Source of the DNA: a virus
Length of the DNA stretch: 64,000 nt
IMG/VR virus record: IMGVR_UViG_3300037247_001169
Coordinates: 8,881-72,880 of that record
Strand: one strand, 5' to 3'
The position numbers and the translations under genes are program-made. Positions within the stretch are counted from its first letter, which is position 1. Each line of letters begins with the position of its first letter. The notes under the pieces are model-generated. The model searched no databases and was not told where the DNA came from. It saw nothing but the letters and a program-made list of their open reading frames with translations. This document shows, in pieces, positions 33,338-62,258 of this stretch.

Positions 33338-33408
33338 TTCCACATTTTTATGGGAATCCACTTGACCTGAGTAACAAGTGTTGTATACTTCATTTGTGAG
33401 TAACGAGT
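33338..33408 (+). promoter_or_regulatory. Cassette-1 promoter with direct-repeat operators
   Basis: TTGACC-16-TATACT; TGAGTAAC(A/G)AGT at 33368 and 33397. Confidence 0.65.
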
Positions 33409-33426
33409 CTTTTAGGAGTTGTGACG

Positions 33427-33609
33427 ATGACAGCAAAGCTAATCGACGTCGTGTATTCTCCGGAACACTGGAATCAGAACTGTGGTTCCATGATCCCCGA
33501 GGCGTGGGAGGCGCTCGTTGACACTGGCGACGGTGTGTGTCGCGTGTTTGGGCATACCCGCGATGAAGCACTGACGAGCGCCGGAACGGAATTCCCTGAG
33601 ATCCAATGA
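33427..33609 (+). CDS. Small acidic hypothetical protein
   Basis: AGGAG RBS after promoter. Confidence 0.55.
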   Translation: MTAKLIDVVYSPEHWNQNCGSMIPEAWEALVDTGDGVCRVFGHTRDEALTSAGTEFPEIQ

Positions 33610-33681
33610 ACAAACGTAGTGGCCCGCGACGGCGTGACGTCCGGGCCGTGGCCAGTACCAAACTGTGAGGAGATACTGACA

Positions 33682-33975
33682 ATGGCAAGTCTACTTCAAA
33701 CAGCCGACGGTCGCATGGTCAAAGTCGGCGACAAGGTCTATTTCTACTGGGGTGGCGTGGACGCTCGCACCCAGAAAGCACGGGTTACACATGGGGTGGT
33801 CGAGGCCGTCACCCAACGGTCGCTCATGCTGATTATCCGACGCCACACCGGCAAGTGCAGTTCTCGGCACGCTTGGCACGTCTTTACGACGCGCGAAGTA
33901 TTGGAAGCTGACCGCAAAAATACTCCGTTCGAGCGCGTCAAGCGGTCCCGTGTCACCGGAAAGTCGGTGTCGTGA
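33682..33975 (+). CDS. Hypothetical protein (SH3-like beta pattern)
   Basis: GAGGAG RBS; VKVGDKVYF. Confidence 0.55.
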   Translation: MASLLQTADGRMVKVGDKVYFYWGGVDARTQKARVTHGVVEAVTQRSLMLIIRRHTGKCSSRHAWHVFTTREVLEADRKNTPFERVKRSRVTGKSVS

Positions 33976-34310
33976 TGACGCTCAAGCGACGAACCAGATG
34001 GAAGCGTGTCATCCGTTTACCATTGCTCACATGGAAACTCTACCAAATCGAACACCTCAGCCTGTGGATGGCGTTCCGGTTTGCATGGCTGACGTTGAAA
34101 TAGAATCACTGCCCGCGCGCCGCACGAACGGCCGCGGGTGGAATATCGTTCGCGGGTGCTCCTGTCGCGAGCTTCGAGCGTGACGATGTGGTACGAATGC
34201 TGAAGCTCGCAGTCGAACGAGAAGGCACGGCGCGCCAACGATACCAAGACCTCGTGAGTAAGTTTTAGGGGCCAATCAGCCGCCCCGGCGGCGATTTACG
34301 GAGGAGTATT

Positions 34311-34565
34311 GTGAGACGCAACCAACGCTACTACATGGCCAACGGATTCCACCACACCGAGACCTACGTGGTCGCCAAGCGCGGCCGCGTGTCGACTGCG
34401 GCCATGATTGCAGCGGAGAAGCGGCTGTGCAAACAGGACGATTGCAAGTGCGGCATGAGTGAGGCCAGTAATCCAACCGACGGCCAGCGTCACGGGATAC
34501 AGGGCGAGCCAGAGCTGTGTCTGGTGAATGATGGCGGCGGGTACTGGCGATTGGAACGACGTTAG
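34311..34565 (+). CDS. Conserved cassette protein (MRRNQRYYMANG)
   Basis: Near-identical homolog at 61440..61694; GGAGGAG RBS. Confidence 0.75.
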   Translation: MRRNQRYYMANGFHHTETYVVAKRGRVSTAAMIAAEKRLCKQDDCKCGMSEASNPTDGQRHGIQGEPELCLVNDGGGYWRLERR

Positions 34566-34601
34566 GACCAGCCGCACGGCGGCGATTTACGGAGGAACGA
34601 T

Positions 34602-34973
34602 GTGATGACGACAGAAGCAGAGAAACCGATTGAAGTCCTGCGGCAAAAACGCAACCTGGAATCCGGCGAAACGGTGCTACTACGCACGGGAATCGAAGAA
34701 GTGAAGCCGCTCGTGAAGATTACGATGGTTATCCTAAAGCGGCTGTACGAAGAGAAGCCGATCGTCCTCTACGAGCTTGCCCAGCTCTGCCGTGACCGTG
34801 ACCACGAACCATGGGGCAAGTGCGGCGATGATCTCGTCGAGAGAAAACTGATTCAGAAAACAGAAAACGGCTATCATGTCCACGACTCCATTCGCAACAT
34901 CGTCTTGGCTGCGATCGACGGCGAAGGTGTGGATATGGTACTCCGCTCACCGTTGGCGCCGAAAGACCCCTAA
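34602..34973 (+). CDS. Hypothetical protein
   Basis: GGAGGA RBS inside repeated linker. Confidence 0.65.
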   Translation: MMTTEAEKPIEVLRQKRNLESGETVLLRTGIEEVKPLVKITMVILKRLYEEKPIVLYELAQLCRDRDHEPWGKCGDDLVERKLIQKTENGYHVHDSIRNIVLAAIDGEGVDMVLRSPLAPKDP

Positions 34974-35137
34974 CCAGCCGCCCCGCGGCAAGGAGACGAA
35001 TCATGGATTGGAACTTCGGAAGATGGGTATCGAGCATGACCTGGCCGGGCATTGTCGCCTGGCTGTCGATGGTCATGCATACGTACCAGCAGCACGGCCC
35101 GCCGTGGGACGTGTTCAACTTCATCGGGGGAGGACCA

Positions 35138-35415
35138 TGAACGAAGCAACAATCAAAGTGACGTCACTCTGCGGCTGTGCGTGGGAAGCACGGGTCGACC
35201 CCGATACCCTGCTCGACACTACCGTCCGGGTTGACCTTGTGTGCCCCACGCACGGCAAGCTCGGGGTGAGACTCGAGCTGACGAGCCCAGCCAACGTTGA
35301 CCTGCTGACTGCGTGCAAGGTCGCGCGAGAATGTCTGTTGAATGGCAGTCCGCCCGGGGTGCCGCTATTGGCCACCGAAGCCGCCATCGCCAAGGCCGAA
35401 GGAGGAACGCCATGA
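35138..35415 (+). CDS. Hypothetical protein with DLL-ACK...AAIAKAE C-terminal module
   Basis: GGAGG RBS; module shared with 35412..35621 and 61728..62113. Confidence 0.6.
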
Positions 35416-35621
35416 GCAAGCAAACTTTCCCGCACACGAACTACGATTGCGGCTGTCAATTTGTCCCGCGTGACGACGGTTGGGCGATTTGGACTATGTG
35501 CCCGCTGCACGAGGCCGCCCCCGACCTGCTGGCAGCGTGCAAGGCGTTCATGTCCGGCCCACCAGCGGGCGTAGTCGGAAAGATGCGGGCCGCCATCGCC
35601 AAGGCCGAGCCCGACGCATGA
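35412..35621 (+). CDS. Hypothetical protein with APDLLAACK...AAIAKAE module
   Basis: AGGAGG RBS, ATGA overlap. Confidence 0.6.
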   Translation: MSKQTFPHTNYDCGCQFVPRDDGWAIWTMCPLHEAAPDLLAACKAFMSGPPAGVVGKMRAAIAKAEPDA

Positions 35622-35872
35622 CCGGCAACCCCCACAAGAAAATGGGTCCGGCCCCGATCGAAGGGGAATACCTCACCAAACAGCAGATGATTCGGTTAGA
35701 CCCGACGCTCGAGGAGGCGATTGTCAATCGCGCAGGACAACGGTCGTTCGCCGCATGGATCAGGTGGGCGGCAAGACGGGCGCTGGGTCTACCCGAACGC
35801 CAGCCGGAGCCCCGCGCCGACAGCAGCGAGGATGGCGGCCGCAAAGACCCCTCGGAGCCAACGGCGGTTTGA
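35618..35872 (+). CDS. RHH-like DNA-binding protein ending cassette 1
   Basis: QMIRLDPTLEEAI-NRAGQRSFAAWIRWAARRAL beta-helix-helix pattern. Confidence 0.55.
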   Translation: MTGNPHKKMGPAPIEGEYLTKQQMIRLDPTLEEAIVNRAGQRSFAAWIRWAARRALGLPERQPEPRADSSEDGGRKDPSEPTAV

Positions 35873-36112
35873 CGTCTGGTCCACTTCGTGCTCGTCGCGC
35901 GACTCCTCGAGGCTGGCTGTCCGCGCCATCAGGCCGAGTTTGTCATTGTACCCGCGAATCGCCTTGTCGATCCGGTGGACCGTGGCCTTAATCTCCTCCG
36001 TGTCCTTTGTCAACGTCCCGATACCAGCTTCCAACATCGAGATCCGGCGGATGTGGTCCATGACCTGGTCACTGCTCGCGCCACAGCTCGGCGTTGATGG
36101 TGCTTTCGCCAT
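35789..36112 (-). CDS. Coiled-coil plus C-terminal TM protein (XhlA/holin-like)
   Basis: 107 aa; promoter TTGACC-17-TAGGCT lies 6 nt upstream of the ATG. Confidence 0.5.
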   Translation of the reverse strand: MAKAPSTPSCGASSDQVMDHIRRISMLEAGIGTLTKDTEEIKATVHRIDKAIRGYNDKLGLMARTASLEESRDEHEVDQTSNRRWLRGVFAAAILAAVGAGLRLAFG

Positions 36113-36162
36113 GCCTCAAGCCTACCTCATGTACGGATTCGGGTCAAGTTGGGCTGGAACCG

Positions 36163-36785
36163 AAACCCGCTCGTACCTTTTGGTTGCCTCGCTGAGAGTG
36201 GCACACTCGAGCCTTTTGGTTGGCTTCCGGTTTTTGACTCGCTTCCGCCAGATGGTTGACTCCGGCATTCTGGCTCGCTCGGGATCAGTGGGTGCCTGAT
36301 GAAGCGTGGCTCGCTCCGCGGCTCTGGTTGCCTAAGTCCTCTGTGGCACGCTTGACTCGTGTGGGTCCCTTCTGAATCATGGCTCGCTTACGCAGCTTGG
36401 GTGTCTACTGGCGAATGGCTCGCTCGGCTCGCCCTGGTTGCCTTGTACAGCGTGGCTCGCTCCGAGATTGTGGGCGCCTTCGTCTATCTGGCTCGCTTGT
36501 ATTCGATGGTCGCCTTGCTTATTCTGGCTCGCTCCGATCTTCTGGTTGCCTCTCAACGTTTGGCTCGCTCTCACCGAATGGGTGGCTGTTTCGGCCTGGC
36601 TCGCTTACGCTCTGTGGTTGCCTGAGTCATCATGGCTCGCTCCCGCGTCCTGGTGGTCTCGGAAAAACTGGCTCGCTCCCGCGCGTTGGTTGTCTCAATC
36701 CGCTTGGCTCGCTTACTGTACCTGGTTGTCTGTGCTGCACTGGCTCGCTCGTCACAAATGGTCGCCTTTCGCGCCATGGCTACGC
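36163..36785 (-). ncRNA. TIGR-like dual-repeat guide array downstream of tas (~16-17 units of 36 nt)
   Basis: Minus-strand AGCGAGCCA-N9-AG(G/A)CAACCA-N9 periodicity; edge repeats at + coordinates 36199, 36235, 36271 ... 36741, 36777; spacers differ between units. Confidence 0.9.
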
Positions 36786-37823
36786 AACGTGAACCTTGCC
36801 CAGCTTAGCCTCCGAGTACGGCGGGGCAACCTCCAGACCCTCAATCTCCCGCCATGCCTTGTACAGATCGATCAGGAACATCTTGATCATGTACCGGATG
36901 GCCATGTTGTGGCGCCTCAGCTTGGACGTCACAATGTGGCCGTCCTCATCCTTTTTCTTGTCGTTGTGGATGCCGTACTTCGTGTGAGACTCCATCCGGT
37001 GCTTGTAGTCGTAGTAGACCTTCGCGTAGGGCGAATCGCCAGCACGAAGGAACGACGCCCCGAGCACTCCCACGAGCTTCGTTTTCAAGAACGGGTTGAA
37101 CGTGATGCCCATGCGGGTCGCGGGCTTCCCGTCCTTGTCCTTGTATTCGACCTCGCGCAAGTGCTCCTTTTTCTTCGATCGGCCGCTGCTCGCCGCCTGG
37201 TAGCGAGCTACCGACAGATCGTCAACGATCAGCAGAAACCCGTTGCCATGCTCAGACATCTTGGCGTTGGGCGGTGGGCCGATGAAGGCCCTTGGGACCG
37301 TCACGTCTTCCGTGAACGTCTCCACAAGAGTCCAGTAGGTTACGCAATCAAGCCCAGCGTAGGCCCACATGCTCGACGGATACCGCGCCTTGTGGATGTC
37401 GAACTCGCTGACGATGACACCGGCCATTGCCGGGCCGACTCCCTTGACCTTCAACAGGAACTCATTCCAGATTGCGAATTCCGTCAGAATCCTGCCTAAC
37501 CTGGAGAAATGGTCCGTCTCGGCTTTCTCCAGGCCGACGTATTGGGCCAGCAGACACAACTCCGTGTACGTGCTGATCACCTCGTCGCCCTTGAACGTCG
37601 CTTGCCTCGGGAACGTCGTCACGCCGTCCGTCAGCTTCTTGTACCGCATACGAAGATCGGCGAGTACCGCTTTGGCGTCCTCTTCGATCTCCTCTTCTTT
37701 CTCGCCCGGCTTCTGGCCGAGCTTCGCCTTGAAGTTTCCTACGATCCGATTGCCCATCTGGATTCTGAGCTTTTGGATGTCGTAGGCTCCGCGGACTACG
37801 GTCCGCAATTGTTCACGTTGCAT
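36780..37823 (-). CDS. tasA: TIGR-associated Nop-domain protein without a visible nuclease domain (TasA-like; IS110-related)
   Basis: YDIQKLRIQMGNR coiled-coil start, L-VKGVGP--AG, SS-WAYAGL, FNPFLKT-L, Y---Y-DYK-R, H--A-RYMIK-FL-DLY--WR--EGL; no N-terminal DEDD/RuvC domain; flanked by 36-nt arrays. Confidence 0.85.
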   Translation of the reverse strand: MQREQLRTVVRGAYDIQKLRIQMGNRIVGNFKAKLGQKPGEKEEEIEEDAKAVLADLRMRYKKLTDGVTTFPRQATFKGDEVISTYTELCLLAQYVGLEKAETDHFSRLGRILTEFAIWNEFLLKVKGVGPAMAGVIVSEFDIHKARYPSSMWAYAGLDCVTYWTLVETFTEDVTVPRAFIGPPPNAKMSEHGNGFLLIVDDLSVARYQAASSGRSKKKEHLREVEYKDKDGKPATRMGITFNPFLKTKLVGVLGASFLRAGDSPYAKVYYDYKHRMESHTKYGIHNDKKKDEDGHIVTSKLRRHNMAIRYMIKMFLIDLYKAWREIEGLEVAPPYSEAKLGKVHVA

Positions 37824-37840
37824 TCCGTTGCTCCTGAAAA

Positions 37841-38351
37841 GGGTTCGCTTTGCCGTTTTGGGTGTCTAGTTTGTGGTGGCTCGCTAATCCGCACTGGGCT
37901 CCTCGTGGACTTTGGCACGCTCATTACTTCCGGTTTCCTCCCAGCACTTGGCTCGCTTAACGCTCATGGCTGTCTTTTAGCTCTTGGCTCGCTCTTGGCT
38001 TCTGGTTGCCTCTCAACGTTTGGCTCGCTTGTCACGCGTGGGTGACTGCAACACTCTGGCTCGCTTCGTACACACGGGCGTCTTGCCTCCAATGGCTCGC
38101 TTTCACGCTCTGGTTGTCTACGATGACATGGCTCGCTCGTGCTCACTGGGTGCCTTAAGCCAGCTGGCACGCTCTTTTCGGTTGGTTGACTGTACTCGCT
38201 TGGCTCGCTCGTGTTCTGTGGTAGCCTCACGCGCGCTGGCCCACTTGGTCACCTGGTCGCCTTTGCAATTCGGTACGCTTGATGTTCATGGTTGCCTTTC
38301 AGATCCTGGCTCGCTAAGTAGCCTTGGGCGACTCCGAACCTATGGCTCGCT
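37841..38351 (-). ncRNA. TIGR-like dual-repeat guide array upstream of tas (14 units)
   Basis: Same repeats; edge repeats at 37841, 37877 ... 38237, 38271, 38307, 38343; one 34-nt unit. Confidence 0.9.
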
Positions 38352-38393
38352 CACCCGTGCCCCTTCTCCGTCATCCACAGGACCGCCACACCG

Positions 38394-38582
38394 TCAGTCG
38401 TCCTCAGCCTCACGCCCCGCTTGTTCAAGACGCGCTTGGATATATTCGTCCTCGCAGCACGCCATCGCGCCCCAGTCGGGATTCGCCGAGCCGCCAACCG
38501 GTTCACGCGTCTTCGTGTCCATCGTGTACAACGTGCCGCACTCAGGACAAATCCAAATCTCAGTTGGCGCTTGCCAGATCAT
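38394..38582 (-). CDS. Small Cys-rich protein
   Basis: CPECG...CC; ORF directly upstream of the array. Confidence 0.5.
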   Translation of the reverse strand: MIWQAPTEIWICPECGTLYTMDTKTREPVGGSANPDWGAMACCEDEYIQARLEQAGREAEDD

Positions 38583-38585
38583 AGT

Positions 38586-38981
38586 CTACGTCATCCCGCC
38601 GTCAGGCGCCGGATTCTCCGCCCGCACATACGTCCCATCGTTCGTCGGCGCCCGGCGGCGCGCTATCGTCATGTCCCCGGGTCGGCGCTTGACGGCGGGC
38701 GCGGGGTTCTCGGGGATTAACGCCCAGATTTCGGCCGCATTACATGGGGCGTAGTTGCCAGTACCGTACACGTGCGTGCGCCGGTGGCGGTCACCACTAA
38801 CTGCGTATCCATCGCGACACCACGTGCACACCGCCTTCGCCGCCGCTTCGAGGGCGTTGCGTTGGATGTCGCGGAATTCCTCCAGTGCCACATAGCCGGG
38901 GGCAACCCGACGGCCTGCAATCCATCGCCCTCTGGAGAATTTGCTACTCCACTCCTTCGCCGTTACCAGCCCGGTCGTCAT
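38586..38981 (-). CDS. Hypothetical protein (RDIQRNA...LIP.nPAPA family)
   Basis: ATGA overlap; motifs shared with 38978..39301. Confidence 0.55.
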   Translation of the reverse strand: MTTGLVTAKEWSSKFSRGRWIAGRRVAPGYVALEEFRDIQRNALEAAAKAVCTWCRDGYAVSGDRHRRTHVYGTGNYAPCNAAEIWALIPENPAPAVKRRPGDMTIARRRAPTNDGTYVRAENPAPDGGMT

Positions 38982-39301
38982 GGTTTCACCTCGCCTGCGG
39001 GCGCCGGGTCTTTCGGTATCAGCTTGCGAATCGCATCAGCGCAACTATGCCGCGTTAGCTTCGCTGCCTGAATAGTCACACGGTTTTCCACGATCACGAT
39101 GTCCTCAACCGCCTCCGCCGCCCTCTCGAGCCAGTGCTGCGCGACGTTGCGTTGGATGTCGCGGACCGTCGTCAGCATCCGCGCACGCCACTCGTGGGCT
39201 GCCGGCGAGTCTTTGCCGACCCCCCACGTCATCGGCGAGAAGCCGGACTCTTCCAGGTCCTCGACGATGTCTTCCGCCGTTATCAGATCGGTCTCGGTCA
39301 T
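38978..39301 (-). CDS. Hypothetical protein (RDIQRNV...LIPKDPAPA)
   Basis: AGGAG RBS; motifs shared with neighbour. Confidence 0.55.
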   Translation of the reverse strand: MTETDLITAEDIVEDLEESGFSPMTWGVGKDSPAAHEWRARMLTTVRDIQRNVAQHWLERAAEAVEDIVIVENRVTIQAAKLTRHSCADAIRKLIPKDPAPAGEVKP

Positions 39302-39310
39302 CGCTCGCTC

Positions 39311-39688
39311 CTACGCCCGCTGGGTGGGTAGTGCCTTCTCGATTCGCCGGACAAGCGATTCACTCGCCAAGCTGAACATCTGGTCCAGCACGGCAAACTC
39401 ACGATCCGAGACGAGTTGTTGCACGGCCGCACGATACGTTTCCATCTCTGCGGCGAACGTATGCAGCAACTCATGTCGTACCGATGCGAGCACATCCGCC
39501 TCGTCTTCATGCTCTCCCGGATCAAAAGTCAATGCGGCGCGCTGGTAACCCGGCTTGGCTTCGCACTTGGCCCGTCCCTCGTCGAGGCGGCCGCACTGCG
39601 CCTCGATTATCCAATCGCGAATCCCGAGCGTCGCGCAAATAGCCGGCACCGCGTCACTGATGATTCGTTCAACGTCCTCTGTCGTCAT
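39311..39688 (-). CDS. HExxH zinc metallopeptidase-like protein
   Basis: LGIRDW-I...VRHELLH; AGGAG RBS. Confidence 0.65.
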   Translation of the reverse strand: MTTEDVERIISDAVPAICATLGIRDWIIEAQCGRLDEGRAKCEAKPGYQRAALTFDPGEHEDEADVLASVRHELLHTFAAEMETYRAAVQQLVSDREFAVLDQMFSLASESLVRRIEKALPTQRA

Positions 39689-39975
39689 GCTCTTCTCCTA
39701 CGCCCGATAACGGCGTAATGCGTAACGTGTCTGCTAGGACGTTGCCTCAATCATCGCGTTCGCCAAATCCTCCAACGACAGTATCCACCGTGTGCCATCG
39801 GGCAGCCGCATAATCAACGCGGTCGGTGGTATCGTCGTATTGAATTGCCACTCTTTGCCGTCAGCGCCGCCCATCACAAACAGCCCTCGGTGCAAGTACA
39901 AAGCCCGCGCGTGAACAGGCTTCATGTTCACTCGGACTTCCTTTTTCGGCTCATCCGTTGGAGGATACGGAACAC

Positions 39976-40303
39976 CCATCACGTCTCCCTTCGTTCGTCG
40001 GTCACGTCTTTCGGGGCTTGCGTGTCGTCCCGGACCTTGTTCAATCCCAATTGTGCCTGCGCCCAGATATGGGATCAGCCACGATTTCCGGTCGCCTGCC
40101 GAACATGACAACGACCGAACCCCAATGCAGTTCCGCCAATGAACTCATTGGAGCCTGAGACAAATAGGGACGCCAGCGCCAATCTGCGCGCAGCGCAACG
40201 CAGCGCACTTTGTAGCGACGTATCCTGAAGTCCCGCCCGACAATCCACTTCGCCATCACGTCTCCCTTCGTTCGTCGGTCACGTCTTTCGGGGCTTGCGT
40301 GTC
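39976..40303. repeat. 51-bp exact direct repeat (39976-40026 and 40253-40303) bracketing one small gene
   Basis: CCATCACGTCTCCCTTCGTTCGTCGGTCACGTCTTTCGGGGCTTGCGTGTC occurs twice. Confidence 0.9.
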
Positions 40304-40716
40304 TTCGTCTTCGCCGCGGGGCGGGCGGCCTCTTCCACCAACTTGACGCCCTCCGGTAGGCACATCCCTCGAAGGCCCGTAAGCGGAACCGGCGTGTTCG
40401 CCTCAATGCACCGCCGAGCAACTTCTTGCACGCTGCGCCCATTCTTCAAGTGCGGTCCTGCCAGTTCGCGCCACCGGCGCCATTCCCTACCCGTGTAAGC
40501 ATAAGCGCCGAGCCGGAGCCTTCGCTTACGCCCCCTCCACCGACAGCCCTCCGGCCGGTAGCGCCGTACTTGATCCACGGACGGCCGCACGCCGTTCATT
40601 CTTGGCGCATCGCAGGCAGCGTCGATGAACGGCGTTCCCTCTATCCACAACCGCTGGTCGTTCTCTCGCAGCCACGTCCGAAGTTTCTCCCGTTGCTCCG
40701 CATCTAGCTTTGGCAT
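40279..40716 (-). CDS. Basic hypothetical protein
   Basis: GGGAGA RBS, 145 aa. Confidence 0.55.
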   Translation of the reverse strand: MPKLDAEQREKLRTWLRENDQRLWIEGTPFIDAACDAPRMNGVRPSVDQVRRYRPEGCRWRGRKRRLRLGAYAYTGREWRRWRELAGPHLKNGRSVQEVARRCIEANTPVPLTGLRGMCLPEGVKLVEEAARPAAKTKTRKPRKT

Positions 40717-41109
40717 TGCGTATCTCCCGCTCTCCCTGCGTCCTTCATCGCCGCCCGGTACACCGCCAGCAGACCGTAATCCGCGATCCGCCCCTTTAGT
40801 ATCCGGCAGCGCAGCTTACCGAATTGACGCACCTGCCACTTGCGGGCCTCGTCAAGTTCCCGGTCTACGCCCGTCAGCGTGCGGGTCTGGGCAGGGCAGC
40901 CCTTGTAGCTGTGCGACGGCTTGCGTTGTTTCTTAGCCATACATCACACCCACTCCGGCGTAAGACCCATGCGTTTCGCCCGGGCGTCGCCGGAACGGCG
41001 AGCGTCACCTTCTATCGCCCAAACGGGCTCCATCCATATCTTCCCCAAATGGGCTTGCCAATACTTCCCGCAAACATCGGTCCGCATCCTCACCGTCTTC
41101 CGTTTCTTC

Positions 41110-41469: not shown

Positions 41470-41684
41470 TGGCGGTTACTCCTCGGGTGCCGGCACGGCA
41501 CATACCTCGACGATAGCCAGCTCCCTCAGTCCGCCATGGTCATCTCGCACCATGTAGCCGCCCATGACGCCCGCCGCGGTTTCTGTCAGCACGCGAGCGG
41601 TAATCACACGCTTGATCCCCGAGTCGCGCACCATCACTTGCTCACCAACCTGCCACGGACAATAGAGGTTGAACGCCGCTCCCA

Positions 41685-45310: not shown

Positions 45311-45344
45311 CCCTGACTCTCGTTTCACCCTATAGGAAAACAAC

Positions 45345-51302: not shown

Positions 51303-51375
51303 GGGCCGGTGCGGGATTTGAACCCGCGTCTTAGGCTCTCCAGGCCCACGTTGTGCCAGACTCAACCAACCGGCA
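51303..51375 (-). tRNA. tRNA-like gene with GGA (Ser) anticodon and short variable loop
   Basis: TGCCGGT-TG-GTTG/CAAC D stem-TGGGC CT GGA GA GCCTA-AGAC-GCGGG TTCAAAT CCCGC-ACCGGCC; no encoded CCA. Confidence 0.75.
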
Positions 51376-55162: not shown

Positions 55163-55830
55163 CCTGTCCTCCCTGCCATTGTTGTTTTTGGAAATACTTC
55201 GATTCCGCCGACTTGCCCCTCAGCAAGTGGGCCGATGCGGTCGACGAGCCCCCTGATGGCTCCCTCGTTCACCGTTAAGAACGCGCGGTCGATCATGGTC
55301 GCGTCGACTATCTTGTAACCCCACCCCTTGCGCGCCGAGATCCCCTTGACCACTGGCACTTCGGTACGGACCACCGGGGCGGGGGCGGGCGGCGTATCAG
55401 CAATCATCGCCTCGGCCGCTTCGGGCAGATCCGCCTTGCGTAGCTCCTCGGCTTTGCGCGCCTGCTCTTCCGCCAGACGTCGCCGTTCGCGATCTTCCGC
55501 CTCTTGCTCGCGGCGGACACGGGCTTCTTCCTCGCTCTTGTATCTGCCCATCTTGCCGTCAAACAGATCTTGCGCCACCTTGAACGGCCCGAGACACGTG
55601 TTCTCAAGAGCGCAGATAGACTTGTGGGCCCTGTTGGCATCAGCCTTCGCTTCCTGGAACAGTGCCTTCACTGCCTTGATCCGGGATCGACAGCTCAGCG
55701 TATGTTCGCCGGCTATCTTGTACGACGGCGCATCGGCCACCTCAAAAGCCGTGGCAAGCCGAACGAGGCTCGCACTTGCGGTGTCGATATCTTTCGTGTC
55801 CGGCGCTGTGATCGTCGCCAGTTCAATCAT
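55159..55830 (-). CDS. Coiled-coil phage protein, copy 2
   Basis: First ~120 aa nearly identical to 1154..1825; C-terminus diverged. Confidence 0.7.
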   Translation of the reverse strand: MIELATITAPDTKDIDTASASLVRLATAFEVADAPSYKIAGEHTLSCRSRIKAVKALFQEAKADANRAHKSICALENTCLGPFKVAQDLFDGKMGRYKSEEEARVRREQEAEDRERRRLAEEQARKAEELRKADLPEAAEAMIADTPPAPAPVVRTEVPVVKGISARKGWGYKIVDATMIDRAFLTVNEGAIRGLVDRIGPLAEGQVGGIEVFPKTTMAGRTG

Positions 55831-56407
55831 CCTTTGCTCCCTTGTTTTTGCGGTAGTTGTAAGCGTTCAGGTAAGTCAGCCACCCGGCGGGGTCCGCGGG
55901 GTCATCGTGTTCTACCCACTTAAACCGCCCATTCCGACCGAGATATACGCAGCCTCGCACTTCAACGCCTGTGCAACATTGCCTATATCCCTCGGTCTGG
56001 AGAGGGTGCCACCACTCGCGGGCGCCGGTTTTGATGTCAAGGAGGACGGTTGCTAGTCCAAGGTTCAAGAACGAACCACGTCTATCAAGCGTCCCGGCAT
56101 AGCCGAGCGTCGCGTTGCCGACGATGACTTGTGCGCTTGCGGACACAAAGCCCGTTTCTTTCCGAAACTCAATCCACGCCTTCGCATACCCAATGTATTG
56201 CGGGCAGTAGACTTCCGCGGCGTCGATGGCCAGCTCGCCGCCGTCATGCAGCTCCGTCAGCGTATCGATCGCCTTCCCCCGCTCACGCCCCTCGTCGGTG
56301 TACCAACGAGTGTTTACGCAGTTCATTGCCTTGAGGATCTGCGTTACGCTCGGGACCGGGCGGCCGTCGATCTTGTACGTGTGAGTTGGCTCGTGGAATT
56401 CAATCAC
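55823..56407 (-). CDS. PD-(D/E)XK phage exonuclease, copy 2
   Basis: Same motifs as 1818..2402. Confidence 0.8.
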   Translation of the reverse strand: MIEFHEPTHTYKIDGRPVPSVTQILKAMNCVNTRWYTDEGRERGKAIDTLTELHDGGELAIDAAEVYCPQYIGYAKAWIEFRKETGFVSASAQVIVGNATLGYAGTLDRRGSFLNLGLATVLLDIKTGAREWWHPLQTEGYRQCCTGVEVRGCVYLGRNGRFKWVEHDDPADPAGWLTYLNAYNYRKNKGAKDD

Positions 56408-56836
56408 CTACCGCCTCCGCGGGCGGGTCACGGCTTTCAATCTTGCCCTTGCTCGCGTGATGCGAGCCCTTGTTGTGCCGCTCCACGCTTCGCCGAATCT
56501 TGAAGCCACACTTCGGACACCTCTTGCCGACTTCTTGGGCCATCATTCACTCTCCAAAAGCTCGCCCCCGCCCCGACGTGTGGCACGCGAGACGGGGGTC
56601 GTAGCCAACGGCTCAAAAGAAAGAAAGCACCCGGACAAACCGGAGTCTGCCGGGTGCCTTCCGGAGGGGAAAGAAGTCAATATAACAAGGGCGGCGAGCG
56701 TCATCGCCGCCCCGACCGTGAAGGCACACCAGGACACGTCGGCCCCCGACCGCCATTGGTTGCCTCGCACAATGTCTTCAGGAATCCCGCTCATGGCGCA
56801 CTCCGTTGCACAGGCCGTTAGCCACAAGCGGGCTTT

Positions 56837-57166
56837 CGCCTTCCTGACCGCGTCTTCGGATTTCGTTTCGGGTGTCGGGGCCAGGGCTAATTGGATTGTG
56901 GTCTGGCAACCCTCAAGGATATCGCGTCGGCGGACACTGTCGCCAGTCTGACACGCTAACGTGATGCTCGCGTATACCGACGCCATGCGCTCCCGCAGCT
57001 TATCCCGCTTGGTCTGGCATTCGCTGAGCTGCTTGTGGATATCGGCGAAGTCTCGCTCTGCCATCTCGTCAGCAATGGCATCGGCTTCCGCTAGCTCACG
57101 TTCGGAATTCACGCCCCCGCCTTCCTGACCGCGTCTTCGGATTTCGTTTCGGGTGTCGGGGCCAGG
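56837..57166. repeat. 49-bp exact direct repeat (56837-56885 and 57118-57166) encoding LAPTPETKSEDAVRKA
   Basis: Identical block twice; partial third copy at 3290-3315. Confidence 0.85.
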
Positions 57167-57486
57167 ACGGCTTTGATGTTTTTTGCCATGGCCCGATAGT
57201 TTCTCGCATCCCGCCTGTTGGATTCTTGGAGACTCGGGAACCGGTCGCTACGTTCCGCTCGTATGTCAGCGTTGTCTGCAAGTCGTAGCAACCACGCCAT
57301 GACCTTCTCGCATTTCGCCCGCAGCTTGTCCCGCTCGACCTCGGCTAGCACGCACCGCCGTTCGAGTCTGAAATTTCGCTCGAGGGCGTCGTCCCGATCG
57401 ACCCGGCACGCGGCGAGCTGGCGTTCCAGCTCGGCGGTCGCTGCCTTGTGAGCAGAGAGCATGCGCTGTTCGGTCTCAGTTGGCAT
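57109..57486 (-). CDS. Coiled-coil hypothetical protein
   Basis: Overlap-coupled ORF; DKLR and PETKSEDA modules. Confidence 0.55.
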   Translation of the reverse strand: MPTETEQRMLSAHKAATAELERQLAACRVDRDDALERNFRLERRCVLAEVERDKLRAKCEKVMAWLLRLADNADIRAERSDRFPSLQESNRRDARNYRAMAKNIKAVLAPTPETKSEDAVRKAGA

Positions 57487-58337
57487 CGGTCGGCTCCAGG
57501 GCGGCCTTAATCCGGTCCAAGCTCTCGCGCGTCACGACACATACGCTGCCTGCCGTGTTGGTGTAATCGATAGTCGTGAGGATGCTCAAGCACGGCTCCC
57601 GCAGCTTGTCCCCTTCGGCCTGGCACACAGCAAGTTTCCTTGCGAGCTGGCCAGCGTGGGCCGCATGTTTGGTCGCCGTGTGTTCGTATTCCGCCAGTTC
57701 CGTCCGTAGATGCCGGATGCACGCCTGCGGGTCGTTCGCGTCCTGTGTCGGAGCGAGCGTGTCATTCATGGGGTGGGCTCCGTGGCTGGCGGGGGTTCCA
57801 TGTGCCATTCGCGCCGCAGACATTCGGCAAAATTTTTGAGGGCTTGCCGCTGAGCGGCGTAATTATCAGCGAGATAACGCTGCTGAATGCGCAGTTCTAA
57901 GAGTTCAAACACCTGCCGCTCTATATCCTCCGTTCCCCGTTTGTACTCGCTCGGCCCGCTCGGCGTCTCGTTTGGGGCGTCGATGGCGGCTTTGAGTTCT
58001 CCAAGCGAGGCCTTATCCCACTGGCGGTTCGCCCACAGCACGTCAATTTCCGCCTTGCACCGCTCCCGCTCGGCCTGCACCGCAGCGCGGGCGGGGTCGG
58101 GCTTCAGGTCAAACCAGACCGTATAACCGATCTCGGTCGAAACCCTGGCTTTCCAGCGACCGTGCGTCCCGTCCGGCACAATTGACATGTCCAGGGCGAT
58201 TGAAACGTCATCGTAAGTGAGCCGCACCGTCCTCGCCGTGGGGCCGATTGGGATTTCGAGTTCAGGCATTCTGGGGCTCCTGTGGGTTTGAGGGGTCCAA
58301 CCGCCCAACCCGGGCCGTGCGGCTCGCTGTACGTGAG

Positions 58338-58544
58338 TTATGGGCTCGCAAGGGCATCCTGTGGCGGCTCCGGGGTTGGAGGTGGATTATTCGCCGCTCG
58401 AACTCGACCGCCCGCCTCTTCGCTCCGTATCCAGCCATCGATCGCCCACCGAGCGGCCTCGCTAACGGTTTTGGCCCAGGGCGCTACGCCACGAAGCCGA
58501 GCTACGAGTTCGTTCGGAAGATTGATTCCTGTTTCATCCGCCAT
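58338..58544 (-). CDS. RHH-like regulator, copy 2
   Basis: GINLPNELVARL...SEAARWAIDGWI; AAAGGAG RBS; promoter TTGACA-16-TATCCT at 58596-58569. Confidence 0.6.
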   Translation of the reverse strand: MADETGINLPNELVARLRGVAPWAKTVSEAARWAIDGWIRSEEAGGRVRAANNPPPTPEPPQDALASP

Positions 58545-58648
58545 GTTCGGCGTCTCCTTTCACCTTGAAGGATACGACATATTCCGGGATTGTCAAGGAT
58601 TCGGCAAGATTTCTTGACAATGGCCGCCAGATGTGCGATAATGGGGCG

Positions 58649-59683
58649 ATGGATGAGTCCGGCGTGGTCACGTTCAATGGCCGTTGCCGCGATTGCGGAA
58701 CGGAATTCAGCTATAGCAGGCAACGGCCAGCCACAGGGCGGCGGCGGCTTTGGTGTGAATCCTGCCGCGATTCTCGCTCGGTACGCGTCGAGGCGTCTGG
58801 CCAATGTACGGAATGCGGAAGATGGTTCACGTATCGACGCCAGGCGGGCCAGGGCCACGTTCGCCATCGATGCGACTTTTGCCGCCTAGGCCCATCTGTG
58901 TGTATCGATTGCGGGCATGATTTTACCTACCGCAAAGGTACCAGTGTTCCATCTCGCCGCCTTTGTAGGCCGTGCCAAACCAAGCGGGATCGAAAATGCG
59001 AAGTGGAATCGCGCCGAAGGAGGAAACGAATCAGGCGGGCGCTCGGGCTATGTCATGGATGCGGGACGAAGATCGCAAAAAGCGAAAAGATCTGCGATAC
59101 GTGCGGCCAGAGGACGCGTGACGCTGCCGCCAGACAGAGACGATTGCATTCCAGCAGACTGGCGCCGAGAGCCTGTGAGCAGTGCGGGTGTGGGCTCCCG
59201 CGGGGCGGATGTCAGCCGTGCGTGGGTTGCCGATTCTGGAAACGTATCCGGAAGCTCGGGCCGGATGACTGCTGGGAATGGACAGGGCCGACTCCCGGAC
59301 CTGGGTATGGCAAAATAAGCGTTACGCCTGAAGGCGGCGTGAGCGAACAGTGGTATACACACCGTTATGCCTGGCTGCTCAAACACGGCCCGCCGGCTCT
59401 CGGCCTTTTCGTGTTGCACAAATGCGACAACAAGCTATGTTGCAATCCCGCGCATCTCTACCTTGGCACGCAGGTTGACAATGTCCGGGACCGTGACACG
59501 CGAGGCCGAACCGCGCATGGCGAACGCTCAGGCACAGCCAAGCTCAATTGCCAGGCTGTACGGGTGATACGGTGGGCTTGGGGCCGAGGCGTGAAACAAG
59601 CCCGGCTCGCAGCCTTGTACCATGTCGATCCGTGCCAAATATGGATGATCGTTCACCGGCGCTCATGGAAGCACGTCCCGTGA
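58649..59683 (+). CDS. HNH homing-type endonuclease with multiple N-terminal CxxC zinc-finger repeats
   Basis: FW-RI...CWEWTG...GYG...HR-AW...VLHKCDN-LCCNPAHL-LGT--DN--D...GE..G-AKL; TTGACA-17-GATAAT lies 6 nt before ATG 58649. Confidence 0.88.
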   Translation: MDESGVVTFNGRCRDCGTEFSYSRQRPATGRRRLWCESCRDSRSVRVEASGQCTECGRWFTYRRQAGQGHVRHRCDFCRLGPSVCIDCGHDFTYRKGTSVPSRRLCRPCQTKRDRKCEVESRRRRKRIRRALGLCHGCGTKIAKSEKICDTCGQRTRDAAARQRRLHSSRLAPRACEQCGCGLPRGGCQPCVGCRFWKRIRKLGPDDCWEWTGPTPGPGYGKISVTPEGGVSEQWYTHRYAWLLKHGPPALGLFVLHKCDNKLCCNPAHLYLGTQVDNVRDRDTRGRTAHGERSGTAKLNCQAVRVIRWAWGRGVKQARLAALYHVDPCQIWMIVHRRSWKHVP

Positions 59684-59829
59684 TGTCAGCGATAGAACGC
59701 TACCAGCGATATGCCGCGTAAGCGGGCCCTAGGCAGCTGCGCCCCGTCCCACTTCCGCCCACTAAAATATCCCACATTTATTCGGCATTCCACTTGACAG
59801 GACCGGGTTAATGGCGTACTATTAAGGTG

Positions 59830-60102
59830 ATGAGTACGACAAAGGACAACCAAAACGGGAGCAAGACGATGAACGGAACCAAGAAACTCGCAGAAATGAC
59901 CCGCGACCAGGCGTGCGACATCGCAAGCGTGCGATTCCACAAGTCCTGCCCTGGCAGTCAAACCGGCCGGAGAATCCAGCTCCAGGACGGGCGCCGGGCT
60001 ACGGTGATAGAGTCCTATTGCTGTGTGGCAGGCCGGTACAGCGGCCACGTGCATCTGGATGGCACGCCAGCCGACGAGTTGGTTGTCGCAAATTGGGTAT
60101 GA
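59830..60102 (+). CDS. Hypothetical protein
   Basis: First ORF after cassette promoter. Confidence 0.5.
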   Translation: MSTTKDNQNGSKTMNGTKKLAEMTRDQACDIASVRFHKSCPGSQTGRRIQLQDGRRATVIESYCCVAGRYSGHVHLDGTPADELVVANWV

Positions 60103-60152
60103 CGCTTACCCCAACCCGCCACCGGCCTTCCGGGGGCTTGAGGAGCAAGAGG

Positions 60153-60419
60153 ATGAAAATTCAGCGAATCGATGACGGCCGCTTCGAGGTCCAGTCCGAT
60201 AGCGGCGCAACCTACCACATCACCTATGCCGGATCCGGTGATGGAGATCCTGAGTATATCGCGCTTTGGGAGTGCTCGTGTCCGGCTGGCCAGCACGGCC
60301 GGGACTGCAAGCACTTGAAGCATTTTCTCGAGTCTAGGCTCACGGAAACCGAGGACGGCGCCGATGGCGACGCCGTAGAAATCACGGGCGGCCAGTATCA
60401 CTGGTTGCCAGCCGACTAA
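60153..60419 (+). CDS. SWIM zinc-finger protein
   Basis: F-V-S-SG-TY...WECSCPAG----DCKH. Confidence 0.75.
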   Translation: MKIQRIDDGRFEVQSDSGATYHITYAGSGDGDPEYIALWECSCPAGQHGRDCKHLKHFLESRLTETEDGADGDAVEITGGQYHWLPAD

Positions 60420-60461
60420 CCTGAAACGGTCTCCGGCCTTCCGGGGGCATGGCGGCGAGCG

Positions 60462-60683
60462 ATGACAGAAACCCGAAACAATTACAAATGGAAAGTTCGG
60501 CAGGAACTCGTGAGGCACTTACGATACACGATGCCCACCCGCCCGGTCGATGACGATCGCCTCGTGGAACGCCTGACCGATCTAAGCCGCTCTGGTTCAT
60601 GGCTGGCCAGCGAAGCTAGGGCGGCAATACACGAAACAACGGACGCACAGTGGCGCCGACTACGAAAGGATGTTGACCGATGA
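60462..60683 (+). CDS. Hypothetical protein
   Basis: Follows repeated CCGGCCTTCCGGGGGC linker. Confidence 0.5.
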   Translation: MTETRNNYKWKVRQELVRHLRYTMPTRPVDDDRLVERLTDLSRSGSWLASEARAAIHETTDAQWRRLRKDVDR

Positions 60684-60904
60684 AGGTTACGATAACGAAC
60701 GATGATGGCACCGTAGTCGATACGCACGAGGCACCCGGATGGGTTGCTACGCGGGCGCAAGCGAGTGCGGCCATCGACACGATGCTGTCGGAGTCATTCC
60801 GCTTCACGCAGTGCGACACGTGCTCACGGTGGTTTACCGGCGATGGGATCGCCATCGCCGATGACGTAGACGACGCCGCGTTGTGCAATGAGTGCAATCG
60901 ATAG
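60680..60904 (+). CDS. Small acidic CxxC protein
   Basis: ATGA overlap; CDTC...CNEC. Confidence 0.55.
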   Translation: MKVTITNDDGTVVDTHEAPGWVATRAQASAAIDTMLSESFRFTQCDTCSRWFTGDGIAIADDVDDAALCNECNR

Positions 60905-61213
60905 CATCTGCCCGCCTGGCGATGGGCACTGACGAGGGAGCCAACAGGAGAAATGACGAGATGACTGACGAACAAGAACGAATGGCCCGCGAGATCAGGA
61001 TCGCAACTGAGTTAGCGCGGGATCTGAGAACGGCCCTACTGCTGGCCGCAGGCGTCTGGGTATTTTTCGTGGCAATAGCCGCAGCGATCCTGGCACTCCT
61101 GGCCAACATGAGGAGCGCCCCGTGATCCGCCACGACCTAAAACACCTAGCCGTCTCGGCCCTGGCGTATGGTTGCGTCCTGGCCGCGGCGGCGCTGATTG
61201 GAGGAGTGATGTG

Positions 61214-61402
61214 ATGGAGACATTAAACGGTGAGCTCGCCCAGTACGAGATTCGCCATGCCGATGGTTCCGAAATCGACGACGAATTCGGGCGTGATGGA
61301 CAATTGTGCGCGACCTACGAGGAGGCAGAGAAACTAGCGCGATTACATCGTGAGGCCGGCAGCGACGTGCAGATTGTCGAACTGGACGACGATTCAGAGT
61401 AA
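61214..61402 (+). CDS. Small highly acidic protein
   Basis: GGAGGAG RBS; D/E-rich. Confidence 0.6.
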   Translation: METLNGELAQYEIRHADGSEIDDEFGRDGQLCATYEEAEKLARLHREAGSDVQIVELDDDSE

Positions 61403-61439
61403 CCCGCCCCGCAACGGCGGCGATTTACGGAGGACTGAT

Positions 61440-61694
61440 GTGAGACGGAACCAACGCTACTACATGGCCAACGGATACCACGAAACCGAAACCTATGTGG
61501 TCGTCAGGCGCGGTCGAGTGTCAACCGCCGTCATGATTGCAGCGGACAAGCGGCTGTGCAAACAGGGCGATTGCAAGTGCAGCATGAGCGAGGCGAGCAG
61601 CCCCAACGAGGGCCAACGCCACGGGATACAGGGCGAGCCGGAACTATGCCTCGTGAATGACGGAGGCGGATACTGGCGATTGGAACGGCGTTAG
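61440..61694 (+). CDS. Conserved cassette protein (homolog of 34311..34565)
   Basis: GTG start after the shared 20-bp linker. Confidence 0.75.
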   Translation: MRRNQRYYMANGYHETETYVVVRRGRVSTAVMIAADKRLCKQGDCKCSMSEASSPNEGQRHGIQGEPELCLVNDGGGYWRLERR

Positions 61695-61727
61695 AACCAG
61701 CCGCAGTGCGGCAAGGAGACGAGACGA

Positions 61728-62113
61728 TGAAGGTTATCGTAGGCAAAGGCCACGCAAACGAAGAAGGCCAACGGTGGTTTGCCGTCGTCCCGGACGATGC
61801 GACCAGTTCGCAGGACCCGCGGCGGACCCACGTGCTAGCCCCCGAGTGTTTGGACCAAGACCAGCAGGGAATGTGGATCGAAGGTTACGCGAACGCGGTT
61901 AAGAGATTCGCTGCTTTCGATGATCTGCTGGCAGCGTGCAAGGCGATCAGGAACGATGGCGCCCTCACGGAGATATGGACACGGCCAATTTCGCCCGACA
62001 ATCTTCCGGCATGCGTGGAACTGATTCGGGCATACTTGAAGCGGCTGACGGAGAAAGCCGAAGCCGCCATCGCGAAGGCCGAAGGAGGTACAAATGCCCC
62101 GACCCCGAGTTGA
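61728..62113 (+). CDS. Hypothetical protein with DLLAACK...AAIAKAEGG module
   Basis: AAGGAG RBS in linker type B. Confidence 0.6.
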
Positions 62114-62258
62114 CCCCGAGAAGCAGCTCAGCGAGAAGGTGAATGTCAAGTTGACGCCACCCCAGCTCGAAGCACTACACCGCGCCCGCAACGGTCGCCC
62201 CGTGAGCGAGTGGATACGCGAGAAGATCCTACCGCTCCTGCGCGCGTGGCTCAGGTAG
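62094..62258 (+). CDS. RHH-like DNA-binding protein ending cassette 2 (54 aa, not in ORF track)
   Basis: MPRPRVDPEKQLSEKVNVKLTPPQLEALHRARNGRPVSEWIREKIL; AGGAGG RBS. Confidence 0.65.
   Translation: MPRPRVDPEKQLSEKVNVKLTPPQLEALHRARNGRPVSEWIREKILPLLRAWLR

Follow-up and report, generated by a model that had tools for sequence, protein, structure and literature searches.

Candidate portable accessory operons with a common promoter frame and unrelated small genes in a novel, uncultured phage

The viral DNA considered here (the window) is a stretch of 64,000 nucleotides (nt), bases 8881-72880 of the 72,880-bp IMG/VR record IMGVR_UViG_3300037247_001169, and it carries two plus-strand operons of small genes, cassette 1 (33340-35872) and cassette 2 (59772-62258), within a backbone coded on the minus strand. 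A gene map based on GC content at third codon positions (GC3) assigns 47.8 kb of coding sequence to the minus strand and 6.6 kb to the plus strand, with plus-strand gene clusters at 33.4-35.9 and 58.6-62.3 kb, which agrees with the plus-strand islands described in an earlier note made from this sequence alone. Both operons open with the same 27-nt element, CCACATTTNTNNGGNANTCCACTTGAC, at 33340-33366 and 59772-59798 on the plus strand, which is present in exactly two copies across the whole 72,880-bp contig and for which 100 shuffles gave no match of any kind. In cassette 1 this element takes the form CCACATTT-N9-TCCACTTGAC, and its 3' end is the -35 hexamer, so that the common start motif ending in a -35, as read in the earlier note, holds.

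The element leads in each case into a sigma70-like promoter, TTGACC-16-TATACT at 33362-33389 in cassette 1 and TTGACA-17-TACTAT at 59794-59822 in cassette 2, both on the plus strand and both scoring 10/12, the score being the match to the sigma70 consensus out of 12. Only four sites in the window reach at least 10/12, and the cassette promoters are two of these; the remaining two form a back-to-back pair at 58569-58642, which drives an HNH gene rightward and a minus-strand ribbon-helix-helix (RHH)-like gene leftward. It is the placement of the promoters, and not their number, that carries the weight, the count alone being modest evidence. To judge from their promoter sequences alone, the cassettes are presumably expressed early. 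No terminator-like site was predicted at either window cassette end.

Operator-like repeats overlie both promoters, as had been proposed, in a direct arrangement in cassette 1 and an inverted one with 12-nt spacing in cassette 2. The two 18-nt copies of cassette 1, which are 83% alike and start at 33368 and 33397 (33368-33414, plus strand), share the core TGAGTAAC(A/G)AGT and flank the -10, one lying between the -35 and the -10 and the other just past the start site. The 12-mer TGAGTAACRAGT within them occurs twice, against 0.22 expected, and a palindrome centred on GTATAC lies at the -10. In cassette 2, the inverted repeat TGGCGTACT / AGTACGACA (59812-59820 and 59833-59841, plus strand) covers the -10 and the +1 region; its core, CGTACT-N12-AGTACG (59815-59838), is found once in the window, and the same pattern with N14 spacing gave no match.

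Gene calls were based on ribosome-binding sites and codon-position GC and gave 9-10 genes for cassette 1 and 10 for cassette 2, in about 2.5 kb each; the short open reading frames (ORFs) of the earlier note are thus present, and its figure of 8-9 per cassette gives way to this recount. The encoded proteins have isoelectric points (pI) from 4.1 to 12, and seven carry at least four cysteines. Cassette 1 begins with c1g1 (33427-33609, on the plus strand like all cassette genes; 60 aa, pI 4.3), an ORFan (a gene without recognised relatives) preceded by an AGGAG ribosome-binding site, and continues with c1g2 (33682-33975; 97 aa, pI 10.9), which has a weak phrog_2251 match (E 0.0029), and with c1g3 (33950-34183; 77 aa, 5 Cys), an uncertain model for which 33975-34103 (42 aa) is an alternative. 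Beyond the shared ORF c1g4, described below, lie c1g5 (34605-34973; 122 aa), between the junction sequences J1 and J2, and c1g6 (35003-35140; 45 aa), a call backed by the conserved ribosome-binding site of J2. A winged-helix likeness of c1g5 is a weak lead, with Atlas look-alikes at a template modelling (TM) score of about 0.5, a model predicted local distance difference test (pLDDT) value of 0.47 and no family named. In cassette 2, the start of c2g1 (59869-60102; 77 aa) is set by a conserved box that spans ribosome-binding site and start, GGGAGCAAGACGATGAA, with an alternative start at 59830, and the following genes are c2g2 (60153-60419; 88 aa, pI 4.6), the ORFan c2g3 (60462-60683; 73 aa, pI 10.1), c2g4 (60680-60904; 74 aa, pI 4.1, 4 Cys), the hydrophobic peptides c2g5 (54 aa) and c2g6 (30 aa) at 60961-61214, and c2g7 (61214-61402; 62 aa, pI 4.1). 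A SWIM zinc-finger match of c2g2, at 18.7 bits just below the Pfam cut-off of 19.6, is the nearest of any cargo match; this row, the phrog_2251 match and phrog_2855 (E 0.0055) are the sub-threshold or chance-level rows from Pfam and PHROGs.

The cassettes had been credited with one ORF in common, and while that ORF is indeed shared, the word "one" is not upheld, as J1 (three copies), J2, a DLLAACK/AAIAKAEGG family and the terminal gene also recur. The shared ORF is c1g4 in cassette 1 (34335-34565; 76 aa from ATG, or 84 aa from a GTG at 34311, with 4 Cys) and c2g8 in cassette 2 (61464-61694). The two proteins are 85.5% identical, the ORF and its upstream J1 are 86% identical over 291 nt of DNA, and a variant of the shared ORF at 89% was found on short contigs. 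J1 (ACGGCGGCGATTTACGGAGGA..., with a Shine-Dalgarno sequence) lies ahead of c1g4 (34286-34315) and of c2g8 (61414-61443), and because a second copy in cassette 1 (34576-34605; 28/30 to 61414-61443) stands in front of c1g5, this gene is read as an extra one set between J1 and J2. In all, J1 is found ahead of three different genes, namely the shared ORF, c1g5 and an ORF of the relative genome described below. J2 (34972-34999 and 61695-61722, alike at 25/28 positions) contains the ribosome-binding site for the gene that follows it. A promoter scan found no promoter hexamers in J1 or J2, both of which carry Shine-Dalgarno sequences, and the promoter frame is confined to cassette 5' ends.

Three further genes, c1g7 (35137-35415; 92 aa, DLLTACK...AAIAKAEGG), c1g8 (35412-35621; 69 aa, CGC...CPLH and DLLAACK...AAIAKAE) and c2g9 (61727-62113; 128 aa, DLLAACK...AAIAKAEGG), encode PF27050-like proteins, of which c1g7 and c1g8 are paralogues (E 6.7e-5). 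Between cassettes, the DNA box for LLAACKA is identical at 21/21 positions and the AAIAKAEGG box at 30/31, and the latter includes GAAGGAGG, the Shine-Dalgarno sequence of the following gene. A profile built from the three proteins retrieved 21 proteins, 12 of which carry Pfam PF27050.1 (Phage_P22_Y8K6); the DLLAACK and AIAKAE columns of a 14-sequence alignment are invariant or nearly so, and an Atlas lead from c2g9 to PF27050 scored 0.87. Membership of PF27050 is only probable, because hmmscan lists no PF27050 match for c1g7, c1g8 or c2g9. A tblastn search of phages with one PF27050 member gave no match. AAIAKAEGG is encoded by GCCAAGGCCGAAGGAGG, which also serves the following gene as its Shine-Dalgarno site (35375-35405, 35589-35608 and 62058-62088), and the conservation of the motif may therefore lie partly at the RNA level.

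Both cassettes end in a small gene, as the earlier note had it; the RHH fold that it ascribed to both is predicted for one and weak for the other, and sequence libraries lend it no support. The terminal gene of cassette 1, c1g9 (35618-35872; 84 aa), encodes a weakly RHH-like protein of coil-helix-helix form followed by an acidic tail, and its 3' end overlaps a convergent minus-strand gene (35789-36112) by 84 nt. That of cassette 2, c2g10 (62094-62258; 54 aa), ends 21 nt from the convergent minus-strand gene 62279-62554. The two proteins are 29% identical over 31 residues (BLASTP, E 0.19), and their profiles align at E 3.2e-4 with 39% probability over 35 columns (hhalign). Both are rare, c2g10 being found in 5 clusters of 5.8 billion and c1g9 in 3 representatives among 1.84 billion (exhaustive phmmer); four extra c2g10 variants, 72-85% identical, occur on short contigs. 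Among the terminal and PF27050-like proteins, DUF6415 (E 0.12) is the sole Pfam row at E values up to 10.

The AlphaFold monomer of c2g10 has a coil at residues 12-21 and helices at 22-32 and 37-53 (pLDDT 68.5, six-row alignment). As a homodimer it is predicted with a score of 0.60, against 0.00 for the best control, with agreement between runs for 100% of contacts and a partner pLDDT of at least 81. Contacts at residues 14-20 are antiparallel, like an RHH ribbon, the pairs of least error being 18-16, 20-14, 17-17 and 15-20. A score of 0.60 was reached by 20/30 solved same-chain pairs and by 1/23 solved single chains, counts that are only rough because the authors' own alignment was used. Since many RHH dimers have been solved, this pass amounts to likeness and not proof, and the prediction may draw on RHH dimers already known to the model. 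Of the 50 VIA-align rows listed for c2g10, at least 15 are what we take to be RHH proteins (TacA, NikR, the PutA RHH domain, ParD2, AmrZ, DinJ, SvtR and others). On their respective prediction evidence, c2g10 is a probable RHH protein, predicted to dimerise, and c1g9 a possible one.

Contig bases 1-15010 are a 72-96% identical mosaic of bases 50004-72868, so that copy 1 of this region (window 1-6130) pairs with copy 2 (window 54003-63988). From these alignments the contig appears to span about 1.3 lengths of a unit genome of roughly 50-58 kb, its overlap made of two haplotypes, and the record is most likely a wrap-around assembly over two co-occurring haplotypes rather than a single molecule. 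Between the haplotypes, cassette 2 is a precise promoter-to-stop indel: in place of 59738-62274, copy 1 has 234 nt (4016-4249) with a 63-aa minus-strand ORF (4045-4236), the homology stopping just left of the motif and restarting 16 nt past the c2g10 stop. No target-site duplication and no terminal repeats were found at the indel borders. The absence of the cassette from copy 1 had been noted correctly, and so had the two positions; the copies themselves turn out to be haplotypes of one overlapping region.

Beside cassette 2, the HNH endonuclease gene (58631-59683, plus strand; phrog_1872, E 9.7e-29), free-standing and with Cys-rich N-terminal repeats, has its own promoter (TTGACA-17-GATAAT at 58614, 11/12), which may give a leaderless or near-leaderless start. 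It is regarded as a separate indel because it is present in copy 2 only and missing both from copy 1 and from the relative genome, and a 30-nt island conserved at 29/30 positions separates the two indels. Sequencing run X1 (labelled marine sediment metagenome, and possibly the source of the record) is the one DNA run listed as containing the region. Among its contigs matching 30000-40000, the cassette 1 form has a depth of 17.9 and the cassette 2 form one of 12.4. Further joints in this run, from the J1 region to the LLAACK region, have depths of 6.96 and 4.8; they are hints only, because they were found at 80% likeness with short sides, but they do fit the four c2g10 variants and the 89% variant of the shared ORF.

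A fusion-like PF27050 protein, P0015, led to a relative, G001, an IMG/VR contig of 31,189 bp (loci L019 and L023; CheckV completeness 71%), which is mosaic with respect to the window: 3/37 window backbone proteins match it at 1e-5 (an early gene and two tail-fibre proteins). G001 carries two cassettes. The locus of cassette A (L019, about 2340-3978) is that of window cassette 2; a minus-strand RHH-like gene and a tail fibre flank it, and the HNH gene is absent. Its promoter, TTGACA-17-TATACT (11/12), is the best site in G001 and has an inverted repeat, TGTCGT / ACGACA, around the -10. It holds a c2g6-like peptide (73% identical to c2g6), a J1 that precedes a new acidic ORF, and a J2-like sequence after which come P0015 and an RHH protein 68% identical to c2g10. 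Cassette B (L023, about 3650-4432) is flanked by the genes for tail completion/Neck1 (phrog_5, E 6e-7) and head closure Hc1 (phrog_25, E 3.2e-17) and consists of two genes, one 184-aa ORFan and a 53-aa RHH-like terminal ORF, behind the promoter CCCGCTTGACG-17-TACACT, with a perfect inverted repeat, GTACGGCA / TGCCGTAC, that extends into the -10. Its box of ribosome-binding site and start matches that of window cassette 2 at 19/21 positions (0/500 shuffles equal), and its core promoter resembles that of cassette A (1/500 shuffles equal).

Both G001 cassettes are on one contig that shows no wrap-around. The frame is found at three kinds of locus in two genomes. Repeats overlie the -10 in all four cassettes, two in the window and two in G001, and all four are antisense to their neighbours, with the terminal gene abutting or overlapping a convergent gene (in G001, by an 8-nt overlap in cassette A and with a gap of a few nt in cassette B). 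The -35 flank is alike within each genome, TCCACTTGAC (CCAC) twice in the window and CCGCTTGAC (CCGC) twice in G001, a match that hints, from two genomes only, at homogenisation or at a genome-specific factor. Searches of viral contigs with the motif, the shared ORF and the c2g10 family each gave no match, and a J1 search of contigs returned G001 only. Sixteen motif loci (11 on metagenome contigs, 5 on genome contigs) were taken to be chance matches, since 0/16 share DNA or protein similarity with the window. In the survey of relatives suggested earlier, for motif and insertion sites, the motif search yielded no true relative, and G001 has cassettes both at the same locus and at another one. 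The idea of a relocatable module gains support from the promoter-to-stop indel, from the differently loaded cassette A and from cassette B inside the connector genes.

The surroundings of cassette 2 vary as well. The leftward early operon beside it starts with a gene (58338-58544, minus strand; promoter TTGACA-16-TATCCT at 58596) that is RHH-like by eye only. Its product is 41% identical to that of its copy 1 counterpart (3689-3910, minus strand), with the last 15 or so residues conserved, also in G001 (L019 1803-2033, minus strand); the promoter regions of the two genes differ too, a pattern that resembles heteroimmune regulatory alleles, and neither protein had a family match. Just upstream of the cassette A promoter, G001 has a small Zn-ribbon-like ORF (MSAIERYQRYSDRKRARGLCTRCG..., L019 about 2111-2311), of which the window retains only the first 10 codons, after the HNH gene (59686-59724); in copy 1, all that is left is the 30-nt island next to it.

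In the leftward-reading backbone, late genes, with the terminase (25780-27666) and a capsid-like gene (21416-22459) among them, extend from about 32.7 kb down to 4.3 kb, and early or replication-type genes, which include RusA, two DNA methyltransferases and a RecT-like gene, from 58.5 kb down to 36.8 kb. The phage, novel and uncultured, belongs to a barely sampled lineage: megablast of window 30000-40000 against phage records gave no match, the best terminase relatives in IMG/VR are only 24-28% identical, and most backbone proteins scanned have no Pfam or PHROG family. A scan of about 40 backbone proteins showed neither an integrase nor a CI-like repressor. The early region also contains a tRNA-Ser(GGA) gene (51303-51375, minus strand) and a 54-nt direct repeat (39976-40029 and 40253-40306), its copies 98% identical and 277 nt apart.

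Directly downstream of cassette 1, the 9-mer TGGCTCGCT occurs in 23 copies, all in the window on the plus strand and all within two arrays (36271-36741 and 37877-38343), phased at 18/36 nt with TGGTTGCCT-like half-sites; Tandem Repeats Finder did not pick up these arrays. They flank a minus-strand gene (36780-37823; 347 aa) whose product matches phrog_4285 'transposase' (E 1.5e-34) and, weakly, IS110-type Transposase_20/HhH, and they may be an array of iteron, centromere or origin-like type, set around a homologue of DEDD-type recombinases. On the minus strand, at about 100 nt upstream from the promoter of cassette 1, a strongly structured element (33140-33260; minimum free energy -57.8 kcal/mol, z = -4.98, 0/200 shuffles equal) terminates in GCGGGGCTTTT, which resembles an intrinsic terminator, and is preceded on the same strand by TTGACA-17-TAGGCT, as read by eye. 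This element, for which Rfam gave no match, could be a small RNA or a control point in the leader or terminator of the late operon.

The anatomy of the cassettes is real and non-random, their parts are paralogous, one cassette is an indel between haplotypes, and a relative has cassettes at two loci. On this basis the reading favoured here, with a probability of about 55%, is that these are portable, probably self-repressed accessory operons with host-type promoters, a layout like that of anti-CRISPR (acr) and anti-CRISPR-associated (aca) operons of the Aca14 type or of morons, and shuffled ORFan cargo. The acr-aca-like architecture proposed in the earlier note is borne out by the sigma70-like promoter, the small ORFans, the terminal regulator-like gene and the repeats over the -10. 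The frame would open with a host-sigma70-type promoter whose -35 flank is conserved, a pair of repeats covering the -10/+1 and a conserved 5' untranslated region with its ribosome-binding site; it would further include the short junctions J1 and J2, in most cases a PF27050-like gene, and a small RHH-type gene at the end. The cargo would be made up of 1-8 small ORFan genes that are unrelated to one another and often acidic or Cys-rich. Upon phage entry, host RNA polymerase would fire the promoter and the cargo would be made at once; as the terminal RHH dimer builds up, it would bind the repeats over the -10 and shut its own promoter, which would limit both the cargo dose and antisense read-through into adjacent genes. 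Such a scheme would follow the logic of acr-aca operons, with an RHH regulator like Aca14. Left active, a strong host-type promoter that reads into the 3' ends of phage genes would come at a cost, which would give the terminal regulator an obvious job. Cargo turnover and spread between loci could proceed by recombination at the promoter, J1, J2 and 3' frame sequences. Autorepression by the terminal gene is thus something that we infer, and the anti-defence label is a reasoned guess: such a function of the cargo is plausible, and counter-defence or host takeover would be the most likely class of role.

Several results weigh against this reading. As to function, none of 20 cargo or terminal ORFs had a significant Pfam or PHROGs match, PADLOC recognised among 10 ORFs only the HNH gene, as a homing endonuclease, and NCBIfam matched 0/10 ORFs, so that the anti-defence or host-takeover function suggested earlier found no support in the libraries scanned, which were these four (the dedicated AntiDefenseFinder and dbAPIS were not among them). 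With regard to the regulator, no RHH family was found for either terminal protein in Pfam, even at E values up to 10, or in PHROGs, and no RHH chain in the PDB by sequence, whether with single proteins (phmmer) or with the profiles A2 and A9. A Foldseek search with the c2g10 model returned no match at E 0.001 or better, and VIA-align Z scores for c2g10 are all at most 3.0, the RHH rows lying at Z 2.1-3.0 over residues 14-54. The c1g9 model is poor (pLDDT 60.6; coil 21-28, helices 29-38 and 44-56, disordered acidic tail) and brought up two unrelated VIA-align rows and no RHH row. As to the frame, G001 is the only relative genome found, and the promoter of its cassette B is unlike that of window cassette 1 (204/500 shuffles reach the score). 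The sole link of the cassette B terminal ORF to the c1g9 family is a RSLSSWVRFALDRA segment (hhalign, 17 columns, E 3.5e-4), BLASTP being not significant. Sites of at least 10/12 number 5 contig-wide against 2.06 +/- 1.12 (maximum 4) in 50 resamples, a modest excess, and no RNA run is listed as containing the region. Finally, the placement of cassettes 1 and 2 on one molecule is putative, because the contig joins two haplotypes, and the differing depths in run X1 bear on whether they share one genome.

These doubts leave room for other explanations. The cassettes could be morons or immunity modules expressed in lysogeny, transcribed from the prophage antisense to silent lytic genes, with an RHH protein like Arc or Mnt of P22 immI, and supplying superinfection exclusion, membrane peptides or antirepressor-type control. 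This is unlikely; in its favour are the antisense orientation, the own promoter, the presence or absence between haplotypes, the classic-moron-like position of G001 cassette B amid late connector genes, the small hydrophobic peptides c2g5 and c2g6 (the latter conserved in G001), and the divergent promoter pair and variable RHH-like early gene that adjoin cassette 2. Set against it, integrase, CI-type repressor and antirepressor were not seen among the scanned proteins, the sole candidate recombinase being IS110-like, and no terminator is predicted at the window cassette ends. Rather more doubtful is the view that these are ordinary paralogous operons, fixed after one old duplication, with neither mobility nor a special role for the terminal gene. 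The shared pieces are indeed 81-100% identical, similar to the shared ORF (86%), cassette A sits at the locus of window cassette 2, and the indel borders lack recombinase, target-site duplication and terminal repeats. A single duplication is nevertheless at odds with short conserved blocks separated by unrelated genes, with J1 ahead of three unrelated genes, with the promoter-to-stop indel between haplotypes, with the third type of locus in G001 and with the co-occurrence of several variants in one sample.

Two other possibilities are far less probable. If the cassettes were toxin-antitoxin or addiction-like modules, the terminal RHH protein would be the antitoxin for an upstream small toxin, which would suit the many weak structural neighbours of c2g10 among RHH antitoxins (TacA, MazE, ParD, DinJ, VapB) and the long acidic tail after the predicted helices of c1g9; however, these neighbours reflect the fold in general, no ORF belongs to a toxin family in the Pfam, PHROGs, PADLOC and NCBIfam scans, the 54-aa c2g10 has no extension past the RHH core, and the gene immediately upstream is PF27050-like, of a family common in phages. 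There is likewise a very slim chance that the picture is in part an assembly artefact, window cassettes 1 and 2 coming from different strains and never having been in one genome. The 1.3-genome-length contig, the 72-96% identical versions of the same region at its ends and the two depths of the Logan contigs (17.9 and 12.4) would allow for this, but the backbone contigs beside cassette 1 have depths of 14.9-17.9, close to 12.4 and well above the 4-7 of the minor variants, G001 has two cassettes on one contig without wrap-around, and the cassette family itself would remain.

Known phage elements share parts of the layout. A classic lambdoid moron is a single gene that has its own promoter and terminator and, as a rule, lies on the same strand as its neighbours. 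The cassettes are likewise extra DNA with its own promoter between conserved flanks, missing in a relative, and can sit in late operons (G001 cassette B), but they hold several genes in antisense orientation, lack a predicted terminator and bring a regulator of their own. In the immI region of P22 (arc, ant, mnt), small RHH repressors act on a strong promoter in an accessory region beside tail genes. While a small RHH repressor, a strong promoter and an accessory region by tail genes are features in common, the RHH gene comes last and not first here, the cargo is different, and no antirepressor homologue was found in the Pfam and PHROGs scans.

A closer comparison is with Aca14, an RHH protein described in 2026 at the aca position, whose binding site is an inverted repeat over the -10 and which is a repressor both of its own operon and of a neighbouring one, the rationale given for Aca proteins being that unregulated acr expression can impair phage fitness (PMC13551039). 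Aca14 operons resemble the cassettes in their strong promoter, small genes, terminal small RHH-type gene and inverted repeat over the -10, and in the presence of several operons per genome with related regulatory sites (PMC13551039). They differ in that the cassettes have no recognised Acr or anti-defence gene, are larger (9-10 genes, 2.5 kb), and each have their own divergent RHH protein and repeats, which are direct in cassette 1. As phmmer with c1g9 finds only 3 relatives, no common family with Aca14 is within reach.

Archaeal viruses have a conserved promoter-bearing sequence ahead of early anti-defence genes (PMC11065993). This sequence is likewise closely similar ahead of otherwise unrelated small early genes, with a small regulator proposed for shut-off, but it has an archaeal TATA box and B recognition element (BRE), single genes and the winged helix-turn-helix (wHTH) protein Aca8, as opposed to the bacterial -35/-10, polycistronic arrangement and RHH-like regulator of the cassettes (PMC11065993). 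In T4-type phages, recombination between repeated regulatory motifs, called PeSL, explains insertions, deletions and replacements among close relatives (PMC2839356). These too are repeated sigma70-like promoter motifs among small nonessential ORFans; however, PeSL combines a promoter with a stem-loop terminator between same-strand single genes, whereas here there is a promoter frame and the Shine-Dalgarno-bearing J1 and J2 (PMC2839356).

A bolder version of the favoured reading, of portable and self-repressed accessory operons, is improbable as it stands: the frame might be a gene-cassette platform, able to enter nearly any gap of a phage genome in antisense orientation and, through recombination at its conserved junctions, to carry ORFan counter-defence genes from one phage to another, unrelated one, with a genome-specific factor reading the -35 flank and so coupling all cassettes of one phage. 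Because the frame would repress itself, capture, swap and spread of counter-defence genes would become possible. If the frame is as it looks, about 25 unrelated ORFan genes in four cassettes of two mosaic phages become candidate early accessory or counter-defence genes, and the promoter frame, J1, J2 and the RHH gene would provide a sequence handle for finding such cassettes without cargo homology, which would extend discovery guided by regulatory sequences and by Aca proteins. If true, this would also give a concrete reason for the built-in repressor, namely antisense insertion, without terminators, against essential genes.

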